From sequence record OM386662.1: a stretch of DNA of 64,000 nucleotides; one strand, written 5' to 3'. The notes below the pieces were generated by a model that saw only the letters and a list, made by a program, of their open reading frames with translations, ran no database searches and was not told the DNA's origin. Shown piece after piece: positions 19,419-38,714 of the stretch. The position numbers and the translations under genes were made by a program. The stretch comes from Escherichia phage vB_EcoM_ESCO47. Numbering within the stretch: position 1 is the stretch's first letter; each line of letters begins with the position of its first letter.

Positions 19419-19493
19419 GGCCCTTTAGCTCAATGGGAGAGCTGTCAGCTCATAACTGATAGGTAGCTGGATCGAAACCAGCAAGGGTCACCA
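19419..19493 (+). tRNA. tRNA with CAU anticodon (Met or lysidine-modified Ile)
   Basis: Manual cloverleaf: acceptor GGCCCTT/AAGGGTC, D-arm GCTC..GAGC, anticodon loop CTCATAA, T-stem GCTGG/CCAGC, 3' CCA encoded. Confidence 0.75.
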
Positions 19494-19497
19494 ATTT

Positions 19498-19569
19498 GGA
19501 TGCATAGCTCAGTGGTAGAGCAGTTGACTGTTAATCAATTGGTCCATGGTTCGAATCCATGTGTGTCCG
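19498..19569 (+). tRNA. tRNA-Asn (GUU anticodon)
   Basis: Manual cloverleaf: D-loop AGTGGTA, anticodon loop CTGTTAA, T-arm CATGG-TTCGAAT-CCATG; acceptor with G-U pairs; no encoded CCA. Confidence 0.7.
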
Positions 19570-19576
19570 CAAATTA

Positions 19577-19652
19577 CGAGGCATAGCTCAGAAGGAAGAG
19601 CAAGGACCTTCTAAGTCCTAGGTCGTAGGTTCGATCCCTACTGTCTCGACCA
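19577..19652 (+). tRNA. tRNA-Arg (UCU anticodon)
   Basis: Manual cloverleaf: acceptor CGAGGCA/TGTCTCG, anticodon loop CTTCTAA, T-loop TTCGATC, CCA encoded; T4 also carries tRNA-Arg(UCU). Confidence 0.75.
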
Positions 19653-22533: not shown

Positions 22534-22897
22534 GCCCTGGGCATATGAATACAAGCGTAAATTAATCCCAAATGAAGTACTATTTGGCCCTATTTTAGCT
22601 TTAGCATTTTTAATCTTTATGATTATAGGAGCCGTTTTAGATTCTAGTGAAGTTATATCGTCTGATGCAGCATTTTCATTAATGTTCGTCGCACCACTTA
22701 TTGTACCGTTTTTATTAATGCCTATTAACTGGATGGGATATTGGTACCAAGGACGTCATCACAGAGCCAGATTAAGAGAATGGAAAGTTCAGTGCGCAAA
22801 AGCCCAAGCTCAGTATGATGAAGCTGTTAAAAAATACGAATACAATGAAGCCATGGAATTCGTTAAGGAAATAAGATGCAAAAGCCTCAACTCTTAA
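22502..22897 (+). CDS. Small membrane protein, FIKECR-tail family
   Basis: Start MSKPTLYMP after conserved junction GGAATGTAGAGAATATG; two TM segments; C-terminal EFVKEIRCK. Confidence 0.45.
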   Translation: MSKPTLYMPIKPWAYEYKRKLIPNEVLFGPILALAFLIFMIIGAVLDSSEVISSDAAFSLMFVAPLIVPFLLMPINWMGYWYQGRHHRARLREWKVQCAKAQAQYDEAVKKYEYNEAMEFVKEIRCKSLNS

Positions 22898-23235
22898 CCG
22901 TATGGCCTTCTCTTGGTGAGAACATTCTAATTTTTATTATGAGTATTGGCATGGGATTTGCCTTTGGATTAGTTGGATTTCTTATTGACAGCGTTGTGTT
23001 AGGATTTATAGGGAACACTGGTGGATTCACAGACCAATGGCAGGACTTACGGTATACCCAAGCCTTTGCATCCATCGCATCATTTTGTACTGTAGTCTAT
23101 TTTTACTACGATTTTATAAACCACAACAAGAAAAATAAAAAGGTTTACGCTTCTCAAATGATTAGTTATAATGAACTCCTAGCTAGACGTGAAAATGAAA
23201 CAATCGAAAACTTTATTAAGGAATGTAGAAAATGA
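22876..23235 (+). CDS. Small membrane protein, FIKECR-tail family
   Basis: AAGGA RBS; TM segments; ends ENFIKECRK. Confidence 0.5.
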   Translation: MQKPQLLTVWPSLGENILIFIMSIGMGFAFGLVGFLIDSVVLGFIGNTGGFTDQWQDLRYTQAFASIASFCTVVYFYYDFINHNKKNKKVYASQMISYNELLARRENETIENFIKECRK

Positions 23236-23537
23236 GTAAGATTATTGAAATTAAAGTACCAGAGTTTAATGATGCCAAATCCGCTTCAGATGCAATTTAT
23301 AAACTTCTGAATCAAGCTGAACGTATCGAAGAAGAAGCAACAAAGATCGCAGACCAATATGCCGTATCATTTTCTGTAGGTGATTATGGTAGCGGTCGTA
23401 CTTATTATCCTAAGGGTGAAATCGTATCCCAGTGGATGAAAAATGAAATTGAAAATAATGGTGGCGATGTTAAGCGTGAAGGTAATGGTTACGTTATTAC
23501 TGAAGGTGCTTGGGTTTCGTCTTCTGCGTTGTGCTAA
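23232..23537 (+). CDS. Hypothetical protein, GWVSSSxxC-tail paralog 1
   Basis: ATGA coupling; C-terminus GAWVSSSALC shared with the next two genes. Confidence 0.5.
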   Translation: MSKIIEIKVPEFNDAKSASDAIYKLLNQAERIEEEATKIADQYAVSFSVGDYGSGRTYYPKGEIVSQWMKNEIENNGGDVKREGNGYVITEGAWVSSSALC

Positions 23538-23546
23538 GGAATCACT

Positions 23547-23819
23547 ATGTCTAAAGAACAAACCGAACTGGCTGAAGCTGTAGCAAAAATCTATGCATCT
23601 ATTGAGGCAGCCAAAGAAATTGCTGATAAACAAAACACCACGTTTAATTTGTATCCGGCATATGGTATGGGCGGAACCTATCATTCACCAGGTTATCTTA
23701 AAGCCGACCTTGAACATCATACTAAACATGGTAACCCTGAATGGGCTGACGTTTACCAATATGACTACAACCTGAGCCTTGAAGATGGCGGTTGGGTTGC
23801 ATCTTCTCACACTTGCTAA
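23547..23819 (+). CDS. Hypothetical protein, GWVSSSxxC-tail paralog 2
   Basis: AAGGA RBS; C-terminus GGWVASSHTC. Confidence 0.5.
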   Translation: MSKEQTELAEAVAKIYASIEAAKEIADKQNTTFNLYPAYGMGGTYHSPGYLKADLEHHTKHGNPEWADVYQYDYNLSLEDGGWVASSHTC

Positions 23820-23828
23820 GGAAACCAT

Positions 23829-24026
23829 ATGTCTCGTGAATTAGATTGTGCTGTACGTACGGCAGTAGCTGCTCTGGAAAACCTGTTCCAAATTGCAACA
23901 GAAGAACGCGAAGAAGTTACATTATGGATTGAAGATAACGCAGGTCTGAATCTCCAGGACGCGATTTCATTATCCCACAATAGTATTACTGTTCAAGGCT
24001 GGGTATCATCTAGTTATTCTTGCTAA
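23829..24026 (+). CDS. Hypothetical protein, GWVSSSxxC-tail paralog 3
   Basis: AAGGA RBS; C-terminus QGWVSSSYSC. Confidence 0.5.
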   Translation: MSRELDCAVRTAVAALENLFQIATEEREEVTLWIEDNAGLNLQDAISLSHNSITVQGWVSSSYSC

Positions 24027-24030
24027 AACA

Positions 24031-24072
24031 GTTTACAACAAGATAGGGCTATGTTATAGTAGTCCTATCAAA
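24031..24072 (+). promoter_or_regulatory. T4-type early promoter
   Basis: GTTTAC ... TGTTATAGT ... CCTATCAA. Confidence 0.55.
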
Positions 24073-24088
24073 TTAAATGGAGTCCACA

Positions 24089-24328
24089 ATGATTTATTAC
24101 GAAAGTATCGGAACCGAAGTAGTTGCTAAAACTATTACTCGTGAAAAGTTTGCAAAGATATTCGATATGCGTTATAAAAAATCTGAACACAAAGGCATCC
24201 GATTCAAAGATGCGCACTGTACAATTTGCCCTTATAATGAAGACATAAATGGTACAATCGTTCCATTGGTAGAGGCTTCACATGATGACCTCTGGGATGA
24301 ATATAATATCGCATGTCGTGAAATTTAA
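24089..24328 (+). CDS. Hypothetical protein
   Basis: Start set at MIYYESIG after early promoter. Confidence 0.45.
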   Translation: MIYYESIGTEVVAKTITREKFAKIFDMRYKKSEHKGIRFKDAHCTICPYNEDINGTIVPLVEASHDDLWDEYNIACREI

Positions 24329-24353: not shown

Positions 24354-25310
24354 ATGATGTTAGTTATTGGTTCTCGTGCACTTCACTATCACGGTCTTAT
24401 TGATTCTAGCGCTATTAAAAATAGTGATTGGGACTTTATTGCGGATCAAGGTTCTTGGAATGCATTCAAAAATCAAATGATGGGTGTATATGTTCACCAA
24501 GATAACCCTGATGTCCAAGTTTTCAAATGCTTCCATAATGGACGCGAAACTCATTTTGAAGCATATATTGTTCCGGCAATCACTAATGTCCGTGAATTAG
24601 TCGGTGAACTCACTCCTGAAGATTTCACGTCTTCTTATGACCTTTTAAAATACGCCAGGAAAAATTTGACTAAAGACCGTTTGAACGGGTTTTACTGGGC
24701 AACTCCTGAGATATGTCTTGCAATTAAGATGTCTCATCGTTTCAAGAAAAATAATCCATTCTTTTTAAAGACTATGAACCATATTCAGTATCTTCGTGGT
24801 AAAGGTGTTACACCGAACGATGAACTTACTGAAATTATGCTGAAACGCCAGAAAGAAACCTTGAATTATGCTCACCCAGTTCTTGACACTTCTAAAAGTG
24901 CGTTCTTTAAAGATGACATCTATACATATGACCATGATACTATTCATGAAGCCATTGCACTAACAGACCGTCCAGCGTATACATTTTATATGAAAGACGG
25001 TTCTGAAGTCATGACCTCACGCGAGAAGTTCGAATTGTTACCAGAAATGGTCAAATTGGCCGGTGTATACGAAGAATCATGTGTACTAGCATTAGAACGT
25101 TCTCAGATTCCTAATGACTTTAAAATTAACCCTGAAGCCAGTTTCATGATGGCATTGGAAAAAGTCTGTACAAGCATCACCTCCGGTTGGTTCCGTGAGT
25201 ATGCCTGGGAAAACTACAGCAAAGTAGTAAGTATGTACCAAAGCTTAGGACATGATGATTACATCAAACGTTTCAAACAAAATTTCCATATGGTAAAACC
25301 TTTCAAATAA
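24354..25310 (+). CDS. Predicted nucleotidyltransferase-fold protein
   Basis: N-terminal GSRALHYHG...SDWDFIAD fits the minimal nucleotidyltransferase GS...DxD signature; GAGGA RBS. Confidence 0.5.
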   Translation: MMLVIGSRALHYHGLIDSSAIKNSDWDFIADQGSWNAFKNQMMGVYVHQDNPDVQVFKCFHNGRETHFEAYIVPAITNVRELVGELTPEDFTSSYDLLKYARKNLTKDRLNGFYWATPEICLAIKMSHRFKKNNPFFLKTMNHIQYLRGKGVTPNDELTEIMLKRQKETLNYAHPVLDTSKSAFFKDDIYTYDHDTIHEAIALTDRPAYTFYMKDGSEVMTSREKFELLPEMVKLAGVYEESCVLALERSQIPNDFKINPEASFMMALEKVCTSITSGWFREYAWENYSKVVSMYQSLGHDDYIKRFKQNFHMVKPFK

Positions 25311-25380: not shown

Positions 25381-25686
25381 ATGAAATTAGGCGAAACCAA
25401 CCGAATTGGCCTTTTAACAATATTTGCATCACCTTTTTACGCAGCCCTTTCTGTTGCAGTATTACAAAAGGCTTACGATATGGATGGTGTTCCTGGTTTT
25501 GTATTCTTATCACCGTTTTTATTATTCGTCGGAGCATTGTTATTATATGCAACTACCGGTTTAGACCATAATGTCTGGGTCAATTATAAATGTAAATTGT
25601 CTGAAGAAGAACACGCAGAAGCTCGTAAAAAAACTATTGAATCTACCAATCTAGAAAATTTCATTAAAGAATGTCGAGGAAAATAA
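25381..25686 (+). CDS. Small membrane protein, FIKECR-tail family
   Basis: GAGGAG RBS; TM segments; ends ENFIKECRGK. Confidence 0.5.
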   Translation: MKLGETNRIGLLTIFASPFYAALSVAVLQKAYDMDGVPGFVFLSPFLLFVGALLLYATTGLDHNVWVNYKCKLSEEEHAEARKKTIESTNLENFIKECRGK

Positions 25687-25687
25687 T

Positions 25688-26374
25688 ATGAATAGTTCTA
25701 AAGTGTTTAATAGTCAAGCTCGTGCAGTAGGTGGTTTTGCTCATGCGATTAAAAACGGCCAAATTAAAAACGAGACTATGTTCTTTAACTGCGATTTGAA
25801 TTTTGCTTTTGATAATGGCGGCCCAATTACTCGTAGCTTTATCCAAAATCTTCCTGACGATTGGAAAGACTCGGATGTAGTATTTGATTCACGAGTCCAC
25901 ATGCTGATGCCTGGTTGGTATCCTGCTATCCCAGGTTATCACCATGACGATGTACCACGCCCTGATATTCCAGTTGGTCAACACTTTATTACTGCAGGAC
26001 AACCTGACTATGACAATCCTCGCTATTTGTCTGAACATATTCTTGGACTTGTTAACGCTGATGTGTGTCCTACTCATTTTGCAACAGGAACTGCAGAGTT
26101 CAGTCAGATTCCTGATGGCGAACTTATCTATCGTCAGTGGCACAAAGAAGTCCTCGAAAAAATCGAAAAAGGTGAACTAGAGAAATGGGAAGCTCCAGAT
26201 CGTACTCTTCTTCAGTTTGATTGGCAAACATGGCACACTGGTTCTCGTGCAATTAGTAACGGATGGCGTTGGTTCGGACGTGTATCTCGTAATACAGACC
26301 GAGTTAAAAAGATTACCAATGAAATTCGTGTCAATGCTCAAGTTTATCTGGAATTCCCTATGGAAGGCTGGTAA
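25688..26374 (+). CDS. Hypothetical protein
   Basis: 228-aa ORF with GAGGA RBS; no confident domain. Confidence 0.5.
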   Translation: MNSSKVFNSQARAVGGFAHAIKNGQIKNETMFFNCDLNFAFDNGGPITRSFIQNLPDDWKDSDVVFDSRVHMLMPGWYPAIPGYHHDDVPRPDIPVGQHFITAGQPDYDNPRYLSEHILGLVNADVCPTHFATGTAEFSQIPDGELIYRQWHKEVLEKIEKGELEKWEAPDRTLLQFDWQTWHTGSRAISNGWRWFGRVSRNTDRVKKITNEIRVNAQVYLEFPMEGW

Positions 26375-26865
26375 TGATTAACAAAACATATTGGTCTAAT
26401 ATTGACGACGGCAATGAAGGTATTTCGTACTATTCAGTAGATTGGACAGGATGTCCATCCTACTTAGTGAAACGTATTTGCCAAGAATTTAAAATCAACC
26501 AGCCAGCAGGTATTATCGTGAACAGATACATTAATGGATATCAACCTATCGATGAAGTAATACGAACAACTCAAGCTGATCTTGAAAAGTTTTTCAATAA
26601 GTGCCAATGGATAACAGGATGGATTATATTTGTACCGTCGGTATGGTTTTTCAGTACTAAGGTGAGTTCTTTCGGTTTTGTTGATATTATCGCTATCTTA
26701 TTAGCATCTACTATTGTAAGTGTTGTTGGTGGCATCATTGGCGGCGGTACCGCCGCCATCATTATTAATCTTATTAAAAGTAGTTTACAAGAACATAAAG
26801 ACAAGATAAAAGCCAAGAATAATGAAGTTGAACGTTTTATTACCGAATGCAGGAATTTGAGATGA
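26374..26865 (+). CDS. Membrane protein, FIKECR-tail family
   Basis: TAATG coupling; Gly-rich TM segments; ends ERFITECRNLR. Confidence 0.5.
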   Translation: MINKTYWSNIDDGNEGISYYSVDWTGCPSYLVKRICQEFKINQPAGIIVNRYINGYQPIDEVIRTTQADLEKFFNKCQWITGWIIFVPSVWFFSTKVSSFGFVDIIAILLASTIVSVVGGIIGGGTAAIIINLIKSSLQEHKDKIKAKNNEVERFITECRNLR

Positions 26866-28115: not shown

Positions 28116-28193
28116 AGTTACTTGAACAGACAAATCACTAATTAAAATATTTACATTTAGAACTCATATGAAAACATATAAAGAATTTATCGC
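28116..28193 (+). repeat. 78-bp direct repeat (leader and CTS codons), copy 1
   Basis: Matches 28602-28679 with one mismatch. Confidence 0.8.
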
Positions 28194-28566
28194 AGAGAAT
28201 GTAATTCCTGCATCTAAAGAACTTTTGGTGACGTTTGAATCCGAAGAGTTCACCGAAGAACTGAATGAGAACCTGACTACTGCCACACCTCAGGTTATCC
28301 GTGTTCGTAACGCCCTGCAGTCAGGCATGCCGGCCGGTGTCTCTAAGACCATGAAGTTGGCATTCACTACTTCTAATAACGAAGACTTTGGCAACGGTAT
28401 CGCTATGAACACTGGGCAGTATTATGTTGAGTGGAACGGTGAAACCGGCACGGCTAAGATTCGTCAGACACGTGCCGCTGGTGGCAAAATGCTGGACGTT
28501 AAACTAAACGTTAAAGAGAAAGACGTTGTAGCTCTGTTCAAGAACTGGATGAAATCTTACAAATAA
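28168..28566 (+). CDS. Internal head protein (IpIII-like position) with capsid targeting sequence
   Basis: N-terminus MKTYKEFIAEN; position after e as T4 ipIII. Confidence 0.65.
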   Translation: MKTYKEFIAENVIPASKELLVTFESEEFTEELNENLTTATPQVIRVRNALQSGMPAGVSKTMKLAFTTSNNEDFGNGIAMNTGQYYVEWNGETGTAKIRQTRAAGGKMLDVKLNVKEKDVVALFKNWMKSYK

Positions 28567-28601: not shown

Positions 28602-28679
28602 AGTTACTTGAACAGACAAATCACTAATTAAAATATTTACATTTAGGACTCATATGAAAACATATAAAGAATTTATCGC
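28602..28679 (+). repeat. 78-bp direct repeat, copy 2
   Basis: Matches 28116-28193 with one mismatch. Confidence 0.8.
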
Positions 28680-29229
28680 TGAAGCTTCTGTAGCAAAAGC
28701 CCAAGGCATTAATAAAGACGAGTGGACTTACCGCGGAAATGGCTTTGACCCTAAAACAGCTCCTATCGAACGGTACTTAGCTACAAAGGCTTCCGACTTT
28801 AAAGCCTTCGCTTGGGAAGGACTTCGCTGGCGTAACGATCTAAATATTGAAGTTGACGGACTTAAATTTGCCCATATTCAAGATGTTGTTGCTAGTAACT
28901 TGGACGCAGCTTTTGTTAAAGCTGACGGTGACCTTCGTCGCTGGAATTTAAAACTATTCTCTAAACAGAAAGGTCCGGTGTTTGTGCCTAAAGCTGGTAA
29001 ATGGGTTATTGATAATAAATTAGCTAAGGCTGTCAACTACGCTGGTCTTGAATTCGCCAAGCATAAATCAAGATGGAAAGGTCTTGATGCAATGGACTTC
29101 CGTAAAGAATTTGCCGATGTTATGACTAAAGGCGGCTTTAAGGCAGAAATAGATACCTCTAAAGGTATGTTTAAAGACGCTAATATTCAGTACGCGTATG
29201 CTGTTGCTAATGCAGCCCGTGGTAATTAA
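28654..29229 (+). CDS. Internal head protein (IpII/IpIII-like) with capsid targeting sequence
   Basis: N-terminus MKTYKEFIAEA; 78-bp leader repeat shared with previous gene. Confidence 0.65.
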   Translation: MKTYKEFIAEASVAKAQGINKDEWTYRGNGFDPKTAPIERYLATKASDFKAFAWEGLRWRNDLNIEVDGLKFAHIQDVVASNLDAAFVKADGDLRRWNLKLFSKQKGPVFVPKAGKWVIDNKLAKAVNYAGLEFAKHKSRWKGLDAMDFRKEFADVMTKGGFKAEIDTSKGMFKDANIQYAYAVANAARGN

Positions 29230-29267: not shown

Positions 29268-29570
29268 ATGAAAACATATCAAGAATTTATTACTGAAGCG
29301 CGAGTGAGTGCAGGTAAATTAGAAGCCGCTATAAATAAAAAGGCCCATTCATTTCATGATTTGTCCGATAAAGACCGTAAGAAACTTGTAAGCCTTTATA
29401 TTGACAAAGAGCGTATTCTCGCTCTTCCTGGCGCTAATGAAGGTAAACAGGCCAAGCCTTTGAATGCTGTCGAAAAGAAAATTGATAACTTTGCTTCTAA
29501 ATTTGGTATGTCTATGGATGACCTTCAGCAAGCGGCTATCGAAGCAGCTAAAGTAATTAAAGGTAAATAA
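29268..29570 (+). CDS. Internal head protein family member with capsid targeting sequence
   Basis: N-terminus MKTYQEFITEA. Confidence 0.65.
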   Translation: MKTYQEFITEARVSAGKLEAAINKKAHSFHDLSDKDRKKLVSLYIDKERILALPGANEGKQAKPLNAVEKKIDNFASKFGMSMDDLQQAAIEAAKVIKGK

Positions 29571-35881: not shown

Positions 35882-36322
35882 ATGATTATTAATACAAACT
35901 CTTGGCACGCTAAATTACACGACCATTTTTATGACTGTCATTCTCGACCACACTCTTTATGTGCTTACTTCTGGAAAATTGTATGGGTCTGCTTTATTTG
36001 TTCTGTGCTTGCAGGCAGTACAGTCTTCGGTTTAACTGTTGCAGGTGCTGGTGTATTAGAGCATTTCTTTGTATTAAGTACTCCTGTTAGTTTGAGTCTT
36101 GGGTTTGTTTTAGGGCTGGCTATACTAGCGGTAGCATTTGGTTTAATGTACAGTCTAATGAATTTATGGTCCTGGTACGATTTACGTAAAGAAGAAAAAG
36201 AATTAGAACGAATTAAAGCCAAGCGTGAAGGCCGAGAAACTAAAGAAAACGTTTTCATTCAATATATCAAAGCTTGTAAATCTAAGATGTGTCCGGTAAT
36301 CCACTTCGAGGACATTAAATGA
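35882..36322 (+). CDS. Membrane protein
   Basis: AAGGA RBS; multiple TM segments; charged tail. Confidence 0.5.
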   Translation: MIINTNSWHAKLHDHFYDCHSRPHSLCAYFWKIVWVCFICSVLAGSTVFGLTVAGAGVLEHFFVLSTPVSLSLGFVLGLAILAVAFGLMYSLMNLWSWYDLRKEEKELERIKAKREGRETKENVFIQYIKACKSKMCPVIHFEDIK

Positions 36323-37305
36323 GAACTGTTATGAAGGGCTATTTTGGCTCACATCTTTATGGAACTAGTACGCCAGAATCTGACGTTGATTTTAAAGAAA
36401 TTTATGTCCCTCATGCTCGTGATATCTTGACCGGTAACGTTAAAGAACATATGAGCAAGAACACGAATAACACATCTTCTAAGAACACAAAAGACGACGT
36501 GGACCATGAGTTGTATAGTCTCAAATATTTCTTTAAACTAGCTGCGGACGGCGAAACCGTCGCATTAGATATGCTTCACACTCCACAAAGTCTAGTAGTT
36601 AAATCTGATTTGCCTGATGTATGGAAGTATATTCAAGATAACAGGTCTCGTTTCTATACAACTAACATGAAATCTTATTTAGGGTATGTCCGTAAGCAAG
36701 CTTCCAAATATGGTGTTAAGGGTTCTCGATTGGCTGTTCTTCGTCAAGCCCTTAAACGTTCTAATGAACGGGGACAATACTTTGATAATGGTGCAGTAAT
36801 TCGTTTATCACATATGAAGAATGTTCTGCCTGTAGGTGAATTTGCTTCGTGGGTTGAAACCGAAAACGAGAAAACAGGTAAGCAAACATTCTATAATCTG
36901 TTAGACCGTAAATTCCAAGACACGTTAACCAATAAAGAGTTCAATGCCATCCTGGTTAAACTGGAAGAGAACTATGGTGAACGTGCTCGTAAGGCGGAAG
37001 CCAACGAAGGTATTGACTGGAAAGCATTGAGTCATGCATGTCGTGGTGGACTTCAACTATTGGAAATTTACAAAACCGGCGACCTGGTTTACCCACTTCA
37101 GGATGCTCCATTTATTCTCGATGTTAAGCTTGGTAAACATACATTTAAAACTGTACAAGAATTCCTAGAAGATATCGTTGACCAAGTTGAACAAGCATCA
37201 GAACAAGCCGCTAAGAACGGTATGCAACAAAAAGTAGATATGAGTTTCTGGGATGATTTCCTTGAGCAAGTCTATCTCGAAAATCATAATTCTTACTATA
37301 AATAG
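36319..37305 (+). CDS. Predicted nucleotidyltransferase-fold protein
   Basis: N-terminal GSHLYGTSTPESDVDF fits the nucleotidyltransferase GS...DxD signature; paralogous architecture to 24354-25310. Confidence 0.5.
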   Translation: MRTVMKGYFGSHLYGTSTPESDVDFKEIYVPHARDILTGNVKEHMSKNTNNTSSKNTKDDVDHELYSLKYFFKLAADGETVALDMLHTPQSLVVKSDLPDVWKYIQDNRSRFYTTNMKSYLGYVRKQASKYGVKGSRLAVLRQALKRSNERGQYFDNGAVIRLSHMKNVLPVGEFASWVETENEKTGKQTFYNLLDRKFQDTLTNKEFNAILVKLEENYGERARKAEANEGIDWKALSHACRGGLQLLEIYKTGDLVYPLQDAPFILDVKLGKHTFKTVQEFLEDIVDQVEQASEQAAKNGMQQKVDMSFWDDFLEQVYLENHNSYYK

Positions 37306-37332: not shown

Positions 37333-37614
37333 ATGAAAAAATTAGTAATTGGTTTATTTGCAGTAATGATGGCGTTCTCTGTTGGTGCTACCACGGGTGC
37401 TACCAGCGGTAGTGCAGGCGCTGGTGGTAACCAGTCTTCTGGGCCTTCCAATGGTTCGGTAAATGCGTCACATTCTCAGGGTATTGAGAACATTAAATCA
37501 AGCTATATTAATAGCACGGCCGGACAAGCAACTGAAGCATGGTCAAAGGGTCGAGTAGTTACTCGCTCCGTATTCTGTGATATGCCTAATTATGTTGCTA
37601 AGTGCGATAAGTAA
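37333..37614 (+). CDS. Secreted Gly/Ser-rich protein
   Basis: Signal peptide MKKLVIGLFAVMMAFSVGA; GAGG RBS. Confidence 0.5.
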   Translation: MKKLVIGLFAVMMAFSVGATTGATSGSAGAGGNQSSGPSNGSVNASHSQGIENIKSSYINSTAGQATEAWSKGRVVTRSVFCDMPNYVAKCDK

Positions 37615-37704: not shown

Positions 37705-37733
37705 GAAACGAAATGAGTAAATTGGAGAATAAA

Positions 37734-38714
37734 ATGTTCAACGTTCAAATCAAAAAAGGTATCTATCGTAATAACGAAATCTCTGGTTCTTATGTCGCCA
37801 CAAAGACCTGGTTCCCGGCAAAGCTTAATCCTGAGTGTTCTCACCTCGGTGATGGTAAAGTTTTCATTATGATTGATGGTTCTGAACGTGGAGTATGGGT
37901 CTTTAAATCAGATATCGTTATGGAAGGAGTTGAGACCTCTCCAGTTACAGTTGTTGAAAGCAACGAAGACATGAAAACTCGTATCAATAAACGCTTTAAA
38001 GTAATGAATATGATGACGAATGGCATTATCAATGGCAAAATTCGTTCACTCATTATTTCAGGTGCAGCTGGTATTGGTAAAACGTATTCTCTGGATAAAG
38101 CACTTAATAACGCTAATGATAATGGTTTCATCAAATACAAAAGCATTAATGGTAAAATCTCTGGTATTGGCCTTTACGAACAACTTTGGCTCAACCGTGA
38201 TGCAGACAGCGTTCTCTTAATCGACGACGTTGATGTATTCTCAGATATGGACATCTTGAACCTTCTTAAAGCAGCATTAGATACTGGTGATAAACGCAAA
38301 GTTTGTTGGAGCACTGCGTCATCTTATCTCGATGATAAGGGTATTGATAAAGAATTTGAGTTTGAAGGTACTATCGTTTTCATTACAAACGTTGATATCG
38401 ATAAAGAGTTAGAACGCGGTTCGAAACTTGCTCCACACCTTCAGGCTTTAGTATCTCGTTCAGTGTATCTTGACCTTGGAGTACACTCTAATGAAGAGAT
38501 TATGGTTCGAGTTGAAGATGTAATATTATCTACTGACATGATGCAGAAACGTGGTCTGACTGATGCAGAAACGTATAAAGCATTATCTTGGATGAAGGCT
38601 AACGTATCTCGTCTTCGCAATGTATCATTACGTACGGCTCTTTATGTAGCAGATTTTATTTCAACTGATAAAGATGGTTGGGAGGAAATCTCTGAAGTAA
38701 CTTTACTGAAATAA
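37734..38714 (+). CDS. AAA+/P-loop ATPase
   Basis: Walker A ISGAAGIGKT, Walker B VLLIDDVD; start set at ATG 37734 with GGAG RBS. Confidence 0.6.
   Translation: MFNVQIKKGIYRNNEISGSYVATKTWFPAKLNPECSHLGDGKVFIMIDGSERGVWVFKSDIVMEGVETSPVTVVESNEDMKTRINKRFKVMNMMTNGIINGKIRSLIISGAAGIGKTYSLDKALNNANDNGFIKYKSINGKISGIGLYEQLWLNRDADSVLLIDDVDVFSDMDILNLLKAALDTGDKRKVCWSTASSYLDDKGIDKEFEFEGTIVFITNVDIDKELERGSKLAPHLQALVSRSVYLDLGVHSNEEIMVRVEDVILSTDMMQKRGLTDAETYKALSWMKANVSRLRNVSLRTALYVADFISTDKDGWEEISEVTLLK

Follow-up and report, generated by a model that had tools for sequence, protein, structure and literature searches.

Genomic setting of ORF1 and ORF2

The window analysed here is a 64,000-nucleotide stretch of Escherichia phage vB_EcoM_ESCO47 (OM386662.1), a T4-like phage of the RB69/JS09 type (Mosigvirus), and the gene of main interest is ORF1, an open reading frame (ORF) on the plus strand at 24354..25310. 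ORF1 begins with ATG and encodes a protein of 318 aa (MMLVIGSRALHYHG...SDWDFIAD), a homologue of RB69ORF134c that belongs to phrog_2141. A first-pass annotation, made from the sequence alone, had paired it with ORF2 (36319..37305, plus strand), which also starts with ATG and encodes a 328-aa protein containing YFGSHLYGTSTPESDVDF, and had read the two as paralogous nucleotidyltransferases (NTases). Both frames are present with exactly these boundaries and lengths. The 14.8-kb stretch around the two genes is ~93% identical to Escherichia phages G2469, mogra and JS09 over ~80% of its length. It belongs to an early/middle block, all on the plus strand, that runs from the tRNA genes (tRNA-Met, tRNA-Asn and tRNA-Arg, 19419-19652) through e.2-e.6, nudE, e, the internal protein genes, vs, regB, tk and rI to the nrdC.x genes.

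Three tandem genes on the same strand upstream of ORF1 encode small proteins with a cysteine as their last residue. The first (23232..23537) specifies an acidic protein of 101 aa ending in ...GAWVSSSALC and the second (23547..23819) an acidic protein of 90 aa that contains YGMGGTY and ends in ...GGWVASSHTC, both members of phrog_899; the third (23829..24026) specifies 65 aa ending in ...QGWVSSSYSC and is a member of phrog_4882. The three are packed 9-10 nt apart and are followed by an 83-aa ORF (24077..24328, plus strand; phrog_3723, RB69ORF135c) and then by ORF1. The 83-aa ORF is lineage-specific and lies outside the conserved module described below, being absent from the neighbour families that recur across clades. 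A sigma-70-like promoter match (TTTACA-17-TATAGT with TG, 24032..24060, plus strand) falls between the small genes and the 83-aa ORF and ORF1; it is a match to the consensus only, and such sites are no more numerous in this region than in shuffled sequence.

Active site, fold and helical domain of ORF1

ORF1 combines an N-terminal minimal NTase domain of the DNA polymerase beta (Pol-beta) type with a helical domain specific to its family. The former corresponds to the Pfam family DUF7277 (residues 2-101, 24357..24656, plus strand; E 8.7e-28) and holds the NTase core, with G6-S7, D25xD27 and E69; the latter is the all-helical DUF7275 (residues 120-305, 24711..25268, plus strand; E 6e-78). The Pol-beta superfamily is recognised by the pattern hG[GS] followed, 9-20 residues on, by [DE]h[DE]h, and this pattern is present in ORF1 as G6-S7 and D25-W-D27. 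Across 263 family sequences reaching down to 35% identity, G6 is conserved in 99%, S7 in 97%, D25 in 99% and D27 in 100%, and position 69 is acidic in 259 of the 263 (98.5%; Glu in 244, Asp in 15). The GS...DxD signature picked out by the first-pass annotation is thus more than a chance match: it is 97-100% conserved in the ORF1 family and, in ORF2, lies inside a match to the RlaP family and is invariant in five homologues, so that active-site residues are present in the alignments of both proteins.

An AlphaFold2 model of ORF1 (predicted local distance difference test score 92.3, predicted template modelling score 0.86) has the alpha/beta NTase fold, with a strand-helix-strand topology in which the DxD motif opens strand 26-31 and E69 lies on strand 64-73. 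E69 would, by this topology rather than by coordinates, be the third catalytic carboxylate. The closest PDB structures to the model are MenT1, ANT(2''), MenT3 and MenT4. Alignment and model together show an intact two-metal NTase site (G6-S7, D25xD27, E69) that is predicted to sit on a MenT/ANT(2'')-like fold, and ORF1 is very probably an active nucleotidyltransferase.

The profile searches suggested by the first-pass annotation assigned ORF2 to RlaP and gave ORF1 only DUF7277 and DUF7275, with no characterised family. Comparison of the ORF1 sequence and profile with PDB sequences, PADLOC and NCBIfam likewise returned nothing meaningful, and the family has no sequence match to any characterised NTase in Pfam, PADLOC, NCBIfam or PDB, including when 40 members were scanned singly.

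The helical domain is the most conserved part of ORF1. Nine of its residues (K125, K139, H194, D195, H198, E240, E241, E248 and R249) are strictly invariant in the 263 sequences and are kept even in actinophage versions of 251-263 aa in which the sheet region is shortened. The alignment shows this domain to be near-invariant and under extreme constraint. It has no convincing counterpart in the PDB beyond the part that overlaps MenT-type proteins.

The structural matches bear on the main rival to the reading developed below, namely that ORF1 is a MenT/AbiEii-like RNA NTase that extends the 3' ends of tRNA or other RNA and either blocks charging of host tRNA or repairs and remodels RNA ends, the small proteins being antitoxin-like inhibitors or timers. 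The catalytic residues of MenT1 are T39, D41, K137 and D152 (PMC10435456), and K125, which is invariant, follows D27 by 98 residues in ORF1, while K137 follows D41 by 96 in MenT1. K125 is a plausible equivalent of the motif III lysine, judging from this spacing. Against the rival, no motif IV aspartate was found in ORF1, the positions ~15 residues after K125 being K139 and T140 with no conserved Asp, and no DUF1814/AbiEii match was obtained for ORF1 in Pfam (E<=0.1), for 40 family members in Pfam (E<=1) or in PADLOC (E<=1).

Distribution of the ORF1 family

The ORF1 family is large, with 2,210 matches in a database clustered at 90% and 1,595 clusters at 50% identity, almost all of them full-length at ~300 aa. 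Homologues occur in 733 phage records and are carried by T4-like phages, ~95-kb Pseudomonas phages, ~150-kb Escherichia/Klebsiella phages, Stenotrophomonas phages and jumbo phages, with a shortened form in actinophages. Among the genomes of ~185,000 cellular species only five loci were found, all on contigs of metagenome-assembled genomes, and the single such locus examined carries a phage replication module and is clearly phage. The family is therefore essentially phage-restricted, most of the phages being virulent, a distribution that argues against a toxin of the MenT type. A literature search on DUF7275, DUF7277, the RB69ORF names and the PHROG identifiers found nothing relevant; the family is without a published study, and the family of small tail-Cys partners described in the next section is a new observation.

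One member departs from the usual length. Gene Ac42p068 of Acinetobacter phage Ac42 (locus L105, 5518-6753) encodes 411 aa, its N-terminus being longer by ~100 residues. The added segment has no match to the hidden Markov model (HMM) of the small proteins or to the ORF1 profile and may be an additional domain in the Acinetobacter lineage.

Linkage of ORF1 to small proteins with a conserved C-terminal tail

What best defines ORF1, and was missed by the first-pass annotation, is a conserved linkage to the kind of gene represented by the three tandem small genes upstream of it (23232-24026). The neighbourhood of ORF1 homologues was compared across 88 loci (80 diverse viral loci, seven fetched earlier and the region in the window), in which all ORFs were called and clustered; the loci were dereplicated into 22 clades by the identity of their ORF1 homologues (60%, single linkage). 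A family of small proteins, defined by BLAST, occurs in 73 of the 88 loci and 15 of the 22 clades. Its members are ~60-110 aa long and are encoded on the same strand as the ORF1 homologue in one to four tandem copies per locus, the gene ending a median of ~600 bp upstream. No other neighbour family recurs in more than five clades. The next most recurrent, NAMPT and an ATP-dependent DNA ligase, reach only five and four clades, respectively, so general synteny does not explain the linkage.

The small proteins fall into phrog_899 and phrog_4882, both listed as of function unknown, and match neither HEPN nor any other family in Pfam. They are acidic (median isoelectric point 4.4) and share a layout of an N-terminal helix, a YG[MS]GG.Y motif, an acidic variable linker and a conserved C-terminus of the form W-x-[SA]-S-S-x-x-Cys-COOH. 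Among 130 unique BLAST-defined members, a set free of any bias from a motif search, cysteine is the last residue in 98%, positions -5 and -4 are serine in 95% and 88%, respectively, and position -8 is tryptophan in 87%. A structural model comprises the N-terminal helix and a small sheet, with the Trp in the last strand and the SS..C tail protruding.

The tail also permits a scan that is independent of homology. ORFs ending in W.[SAGTNP]S.{2,4}C number 192 among the 14,441 six-frame ORFs of the 88 loci, and 183 of the 192 lie in the same-strand 2.5-kb zone upstream of the ORF1 homologue, a zone that holds 9.4% of all ORFs (hypergeometric P 1.7e-179). Such upstream ORFs are present in 79 of the 88 loci and 20 of the 22 clades. 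When each clade is reduced to one representative, a motif gene is found in 19 of 22, against a null of ~1% per locus (P 1.7e-31). Within the whole 64-kb window the motif occurs in three of 721 ORFs, and these are the three tandem genes upstream of ORF1. In the T4 genome, taken from the record of a genome-reduced clone in which the e.2-e.8 region is present, none of 1,779 ORFs has the motif, and neither a homologue of the small proteins nor one of ORF1 was found. The linkage holds in the reverse direction as well: the most divergent matches to a small-protein query come from Erwinia jumbo phage Kaldavass and Acinetobacter phage Ac42, each of which has two motif genes ~1 kb upstream of an ORF1 homologue, and Acinetobacter phage Lazarus has the same arrangement.

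Of the nine loci without a motif gene upstream, four (L060, L061, L063 and L089, all from IMG/VR) carry a motif ORF (...GTYAWCSSSMEC at the stop codon) on the minus strand, ~5.3-5.8 kb downstream of the ORF1 homologue. The partner may have been relocated in these loci rather than lost.

Two other candidates for a physical or genomic association were rejected. An apparent 377-aa fusion of a small protein to the NTase (P0338; locus L106, 107-1240, on an ENA metagenome scaffold; small-family HMM E 2e-7) results from faulty gene calling, in which a stop codon was translated as Gln. Under code 11 this stop comes after ...WNSSGGPACW, which has its Cys at -2, and the NTase begins four codons further on; the case is a caution for Rosetta-stone inferences from metagenomic gene calls. 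Genes of 212-243 aa beside ORF1 homologues in three distant phages were also considered as a partner, and show no homology to each other or to the similarly sized ORF at 25688-26374 of the window.

These results show a genomic coupling, well above anything chance would give, between ORF1 and small acidic proteins whose exposed C-terminal tail is invariant. We consider it likely that ORF1 and the small proteins work together. The same results bear on a further rival, that ORF1 is a stand-alone small-molecule NTase like ANT(2'') or LnuA, which inactivates or makes a metabolite, an antibiotic-like anti-phage compound or a signalling nucleotide, with the upstream small genes as functionally independent early genes that travel along. 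The linkage persists across clades in which ORF1 identity has fallen to ~40% and in which no other neighbour is conserved, ORF1 and the small genes are jointly absent from the reduced T4 genome, and the reverse comparison gives the same result. Since independent genes would not stay linked in this way, we regard a stand-alone small-molecule enzyme as improbable, notwithstanding the match of the model to ANT(2'').

The linkage can also be read in favour of a MenT/AbiEii-like RNA enzyme. Having the small gene first and the NTase gene second is canonical for toxin-antitoxin pairs, the partners of ORF1 are acidic, and MenA1, itself a small protein, blocks the active site of MenT1 (PMC10435456). 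By this account the tail would plug the active site of ORF1 as a pseudo-substrate, as the 68-aa MenA1 does on MenT1; the physical interaction would be the same as in our preferred reading, in which the tail is a substrate, with its logic reversed. The small genes, however, come in one to four divergent copies that are often split from the enzyme gene by unrelated genes, which is atypical for antitoxins. A role in RNA metabolism finds anecdotal support in genes for Rnl1 and PNKP 4-5 kb upstream of ORF1 homologues in jumbo phages, a tRNA cluster beside the homologue of a Gordonia phage and an 'RNA ligase' near that of a Streptomyces phage, but RNA-repair genes are not among the recurrent neighbours, and no such family recurs in the 88 loci. 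This RNA context was therefore set aside. We judge the MenT-like reading of ORF1 rather unlikely, though only somewhat less probable than the substrate reading.

Proposed nucleotidylylation of the tail

We propose that ORF1 is the catalytic component of a conserved phage-restricted module, in which one to four genes for small acidic tail-Cys proteins precede an NTase-DUF7275 gene on the same strand. The conserved tail of a small protein would lodge in a cleft formed by the helical domain and the NTase core, and ORF1 would then transfer a nucleoside monophosphate (NMP), or a short chain of NMPs, from a nucleoside triphosphate (NTP) to the hydroxyl of a tail serine. Such a modification could activate or inactivate these small early proteins while the phage takes over the host or counters its defences, following the logic by which MntA oligo-AMPylates HepT in type VII toxin-antitoxin systems.

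Three considerations favour the tail as a substrate: the exposed tail has invariant hydroxyl residues, several divergent copies per genome resemble substrates more than a single inhibitor, and the oligo-AMPylation of HepT by MntA provides a precedent (PMC7641770). It is possible, and we put it forward tentatively, that the small-protein tail is the nucleotidylylation substrate of ORF1. The broader proposition, that ORF1 and the tail-Cys proteins constitute an undescribed phage-specific protein-nucleotidylylation system supplying nucleotide-tagged effectors for host takeover or counter-defence, is more doubtful.

Several observations weigh against the proposal. Among structurally similar enzymes whose substrates are known, the nearest modify tRNA 3' ends (MenT) or small molecules (ANT, Lnu), not proteins, and the terminal cysteine, the most conserved residue of the tail, is without an obvious role in O-nucleotidylylation. 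The linkage between the genes is, in related phages, partly inherited synteny, and its P-values overstate independence because related phages inherit gene order. The upstream motif gene is absent from nine of the 88 loci, the short actinophage homologues of ORF1 are without one within 2.5 kb, and elsewhere the small genes are not always directly adjacent to the ORF1 homologue, unrelated genes often lying between.

ORF1 nevertheless stands for a large family that keeps its active site intact, is without a published study and shows no link by sequence to characterised NTases, and its linkage to the tail-Cys family turns a 'hypothetical protein' into a concrete two-component hypothesis. Were the tails modified, the module would be a new protein-nucleotidylylation system for phage biology and a new pairing of enzyme and substrate, found widely among large phages, T4-like and jumbo phages included. 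Were the small proteins instead to restrain a MenT-like RNA enzyme, virulent phages would for the first time be seen to have a toxin-antitoxin-like NTase module of their own. Either outcome would be relevant to the ways in which large phages interfere with translation or immunity in the host.

Genes flanking the ORF1 module

Directly downstream of ORF1 lies the ORF at 25688-26374 (228 aa; RB69ORF132c, phrog_1843), which contains a PGYHHDDVPRP stretch and has no match in Pfam, PADLOC or NCBIfam. It is probably outside the ORF1 module, since comparison finds it not to be homologous to the similar-sized genes near distant ORF1 homologues. Small predicted membrane proteins (e.3-like, RB69ORF133c-like and e.2-like) flank the module at 22876-23235, 25381-25686 and 26374-26865 and, more loosely, at 35882-36322. 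They have a C-terminal motif in common (...ENFIKECRK, ...ENFIKECRGK, ...ERFITECRNLR) and look like another family of small proteins in this region whose conserved tail contains a Cys.

Further downstream, the consecutive ORFs 28168-28566, 28654-29229 and 29268-29570 share the N-terminus MKTY[KQ]EFI[AT]E, and in relatives the IpIII and IpII internal head proteins are annotated at this place. The shared N-terminus resembles the capsid-targeting sequence of T4 internal proteins, which we take to be known biology.

ORF2 (NrdC.11) and the putative ATPase NrdC.10

ORF2 belongs to phrog_388 ('nucleotidyltransferase') and is annotated nrdC.11 at the syntenic position in JS09; it is 78% identical to nrdC.11 of T2, and its homologues occur in 1,569 phage records. 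Its match to the Pfam family RlaP (PF10127; E 1.2e-12, 48.5 bits against a gathering cutoff of 23) covers residues 8-139 and, of the 249 profile positions, 25-147, so that just the N-terminal half is matched. G10-S11 and D22xD24 (GS-x10-DxD), together with D60/D62, are invariant in the five homologues, which reach down to 34% identity. The RlaP structure pairs an NTase domain at the N-terminus with a helical domain at the C-terminus, and three of its aspartates are strictly conserved (PMC12776372); D22, D24 and either D60 or D62 are the candidates for these in ORF2.

Two Pseudomonas RlaP enzymes extend RNA at its 3'-OH by one or two NMPs, do not modify DNA or protein, and prefer mimics of nicked tRNA; the preprint of December 2025 that reports this places T4 NrdC.11 in the RlaP family, in network cluster 5 (PMC12776372). 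ORF2 is the NrdC.11 ortholog and thereby a member of a known RNA-repair family, with a predicted activity as an RNA 3'-end nucleotidyltransferase. The first-pass annotation had left the substrates of both proteins unknown, which in the case of ORF2 is out of date given the RNA activity reported for the RlaP family and its inclusion of T4 NrdC.11 (PMC12776372). A point against this predicted activity is that it is extrapolated from Pseudomonas enzymes of a different sequence cluster, described in a preprint. In jumbo phages RlaP and RNA ligases show parallel distributions (PMC7824862), and the nrdC.11-mobD.3 gene block can be deleted from T4 in the laboratory (PMC9825161).

The gene two places downstream of ORF2 encodes a putative P-loop ATPase and lies where the first-pass annotation had it. 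This NrdC.10 homologue (37713..38714 or, with the start at 37734, 37734..38714, plus strand; phrog_1250) has the Walker A motif GAAGIGKT and a Walker B-like LLIDDVD; the start at 37734 is favoured because the PHROG match begins at residue 8. Its Pfam matches to AAA_22, AAA_16, AAA_14 and nSTAND all fall below the gathering cutoffs, with the Walker motifs visible in the sequence. Between the two genes is a 93-aa ORF (37333..37614, plus strand; phrog_2243) with a signal-peptide-like N-terminus (MKKLVIGLFAVMMAFSVGA).

From the shared motif and this proximity it had been supposed that ORF1 and ORF2 are paralogues with related roles and that ORF2 works with the AAA+/P-loop ATPase NrdC.10. Both proteins do carry GS...DxD, and NrdC.11 and NrdC.10 are neighbours in T4/RB69-type phages. 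Homology between the two NTases is, however, undetectable: BLASTP gives an E of 6.2, and alignment by hhalign of a profile of 40 ORF1-family members (A1) with one of the five NrdC.11 homologues (A3) gives a probability of 0.14% and an E of 0.42, with the two GS...DxD motifs not aligned to each other. The proteins fall into different Pfam families (DUF7277 and DUF7275 as against RlaP) and different PHROGs (2141 and 388) and have different partners, so that ORF1 and ORF2 share at most the fold of the Pol-beta superfamily. The pairing with the ATPase fares no better. No NrdC.10 homologue is present within 8 kb on either side of the NrdC.11 homologue in four distant T4-like phages (Vibrio phage PVA8, Acinetobacter phage 133, Aeromonas phage AS-gz and Cronobacter phage LPCS28), and bacterial RlaP genes stand in RtcB/RtcA operons (PMC12776372), not with an ATPase of the NrdC.10 type. 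The adjacency of NrdC.11 and NrdC.10 looks like local synteny only, and we regard paralogous NTases served by this ATPase as very improbable.

In two of these phages the NrdC.11/RlaP homologue has other genes of nucleotide handling in its vicinity: an annotated CCA-adding enzyme, a NUDIX gene and NAMPT in LPCS28 (locus L014, 2725-3765 and 8001-8990), and an annotated 'cytidyltransferase' and NAMPT in AS-gz (locus L013, 6376-7434 and 7995-8969). Many GenBank records label NrdC.11 and NrdC.10 homologues, and other nrdC.x genes, as 'thioredoxin'. Neither the NrdC.11 nor the NrdC.10 homologue has a thioredoxin match, and the label seems to be an error propagated from the gene name nrdC; the present analysis corrects it for the many NrdC.10 and NrdC.11 entries concerned.

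Comparison with known systems

ORF2 resembles the RlaP family in its profile match, in its GS...DxD and third conserved Asp region, in its orthology to T4 and T2 NrdC.11 and in its length class. The characterised Pseudomonas enzymes PfRlaP and PaRlaP belong to cluster 1a and are encoded in RtcB operons, whereas T4 NrdC.11 falls in cluster 5.

The MenT (MenT1, MenT3, MenT4) and AbiEii proteins are DUF1814 (PF08843) NTase toxins of the MenAT and AbiE toxin-antitoxin and abortive-infection systems, and have no sequence match to ORF1. ORF1 has a canonical DxD where MenT has [ST]xD, and its helical domain is larger than that of MenT, with an invariant set of His, Asp, Glu and Arg residues of its own. 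MenT and AbiEii are bacterial, whereas the ORF1 family is phage-restricted. The bacterial toxins have an antitoxin of the MenA or AbiEi type directly upstream in a toxin-antitoxin or abortive-infection context; ORF1 has neither, its upstream partners being multi-copy tail-Cys proteins unrelated to MenA or AbiEi. ANT(2'')-Ia (AadB) and LnuA, for their part, are bacterial resistance genes, without the large conserved helical domain and without the partner proteins of ORF1.

Our preferred reading of the ORF1 module draws on a functional analogy with MntA-HepT. MntA is a minimal Pol-beta NTase encoded beside a small partner that it covalently (oligo)AMPylates, thereby controlling the activity of the partner (PMC7641770). 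ORF1 is likewise a minimal Pol-beta NTase encoded next to a small partner, with no NTP_transf_2 or MntA match, and its partners, unlike HepT, are not HEPN proteins. In MntA-HepT the acceptor is a tyrosine; in the ORF1 module, which is set in a virulent phage, the proposed acceptor would instead be the Ser-Ser of a conserved C-terminal tail.

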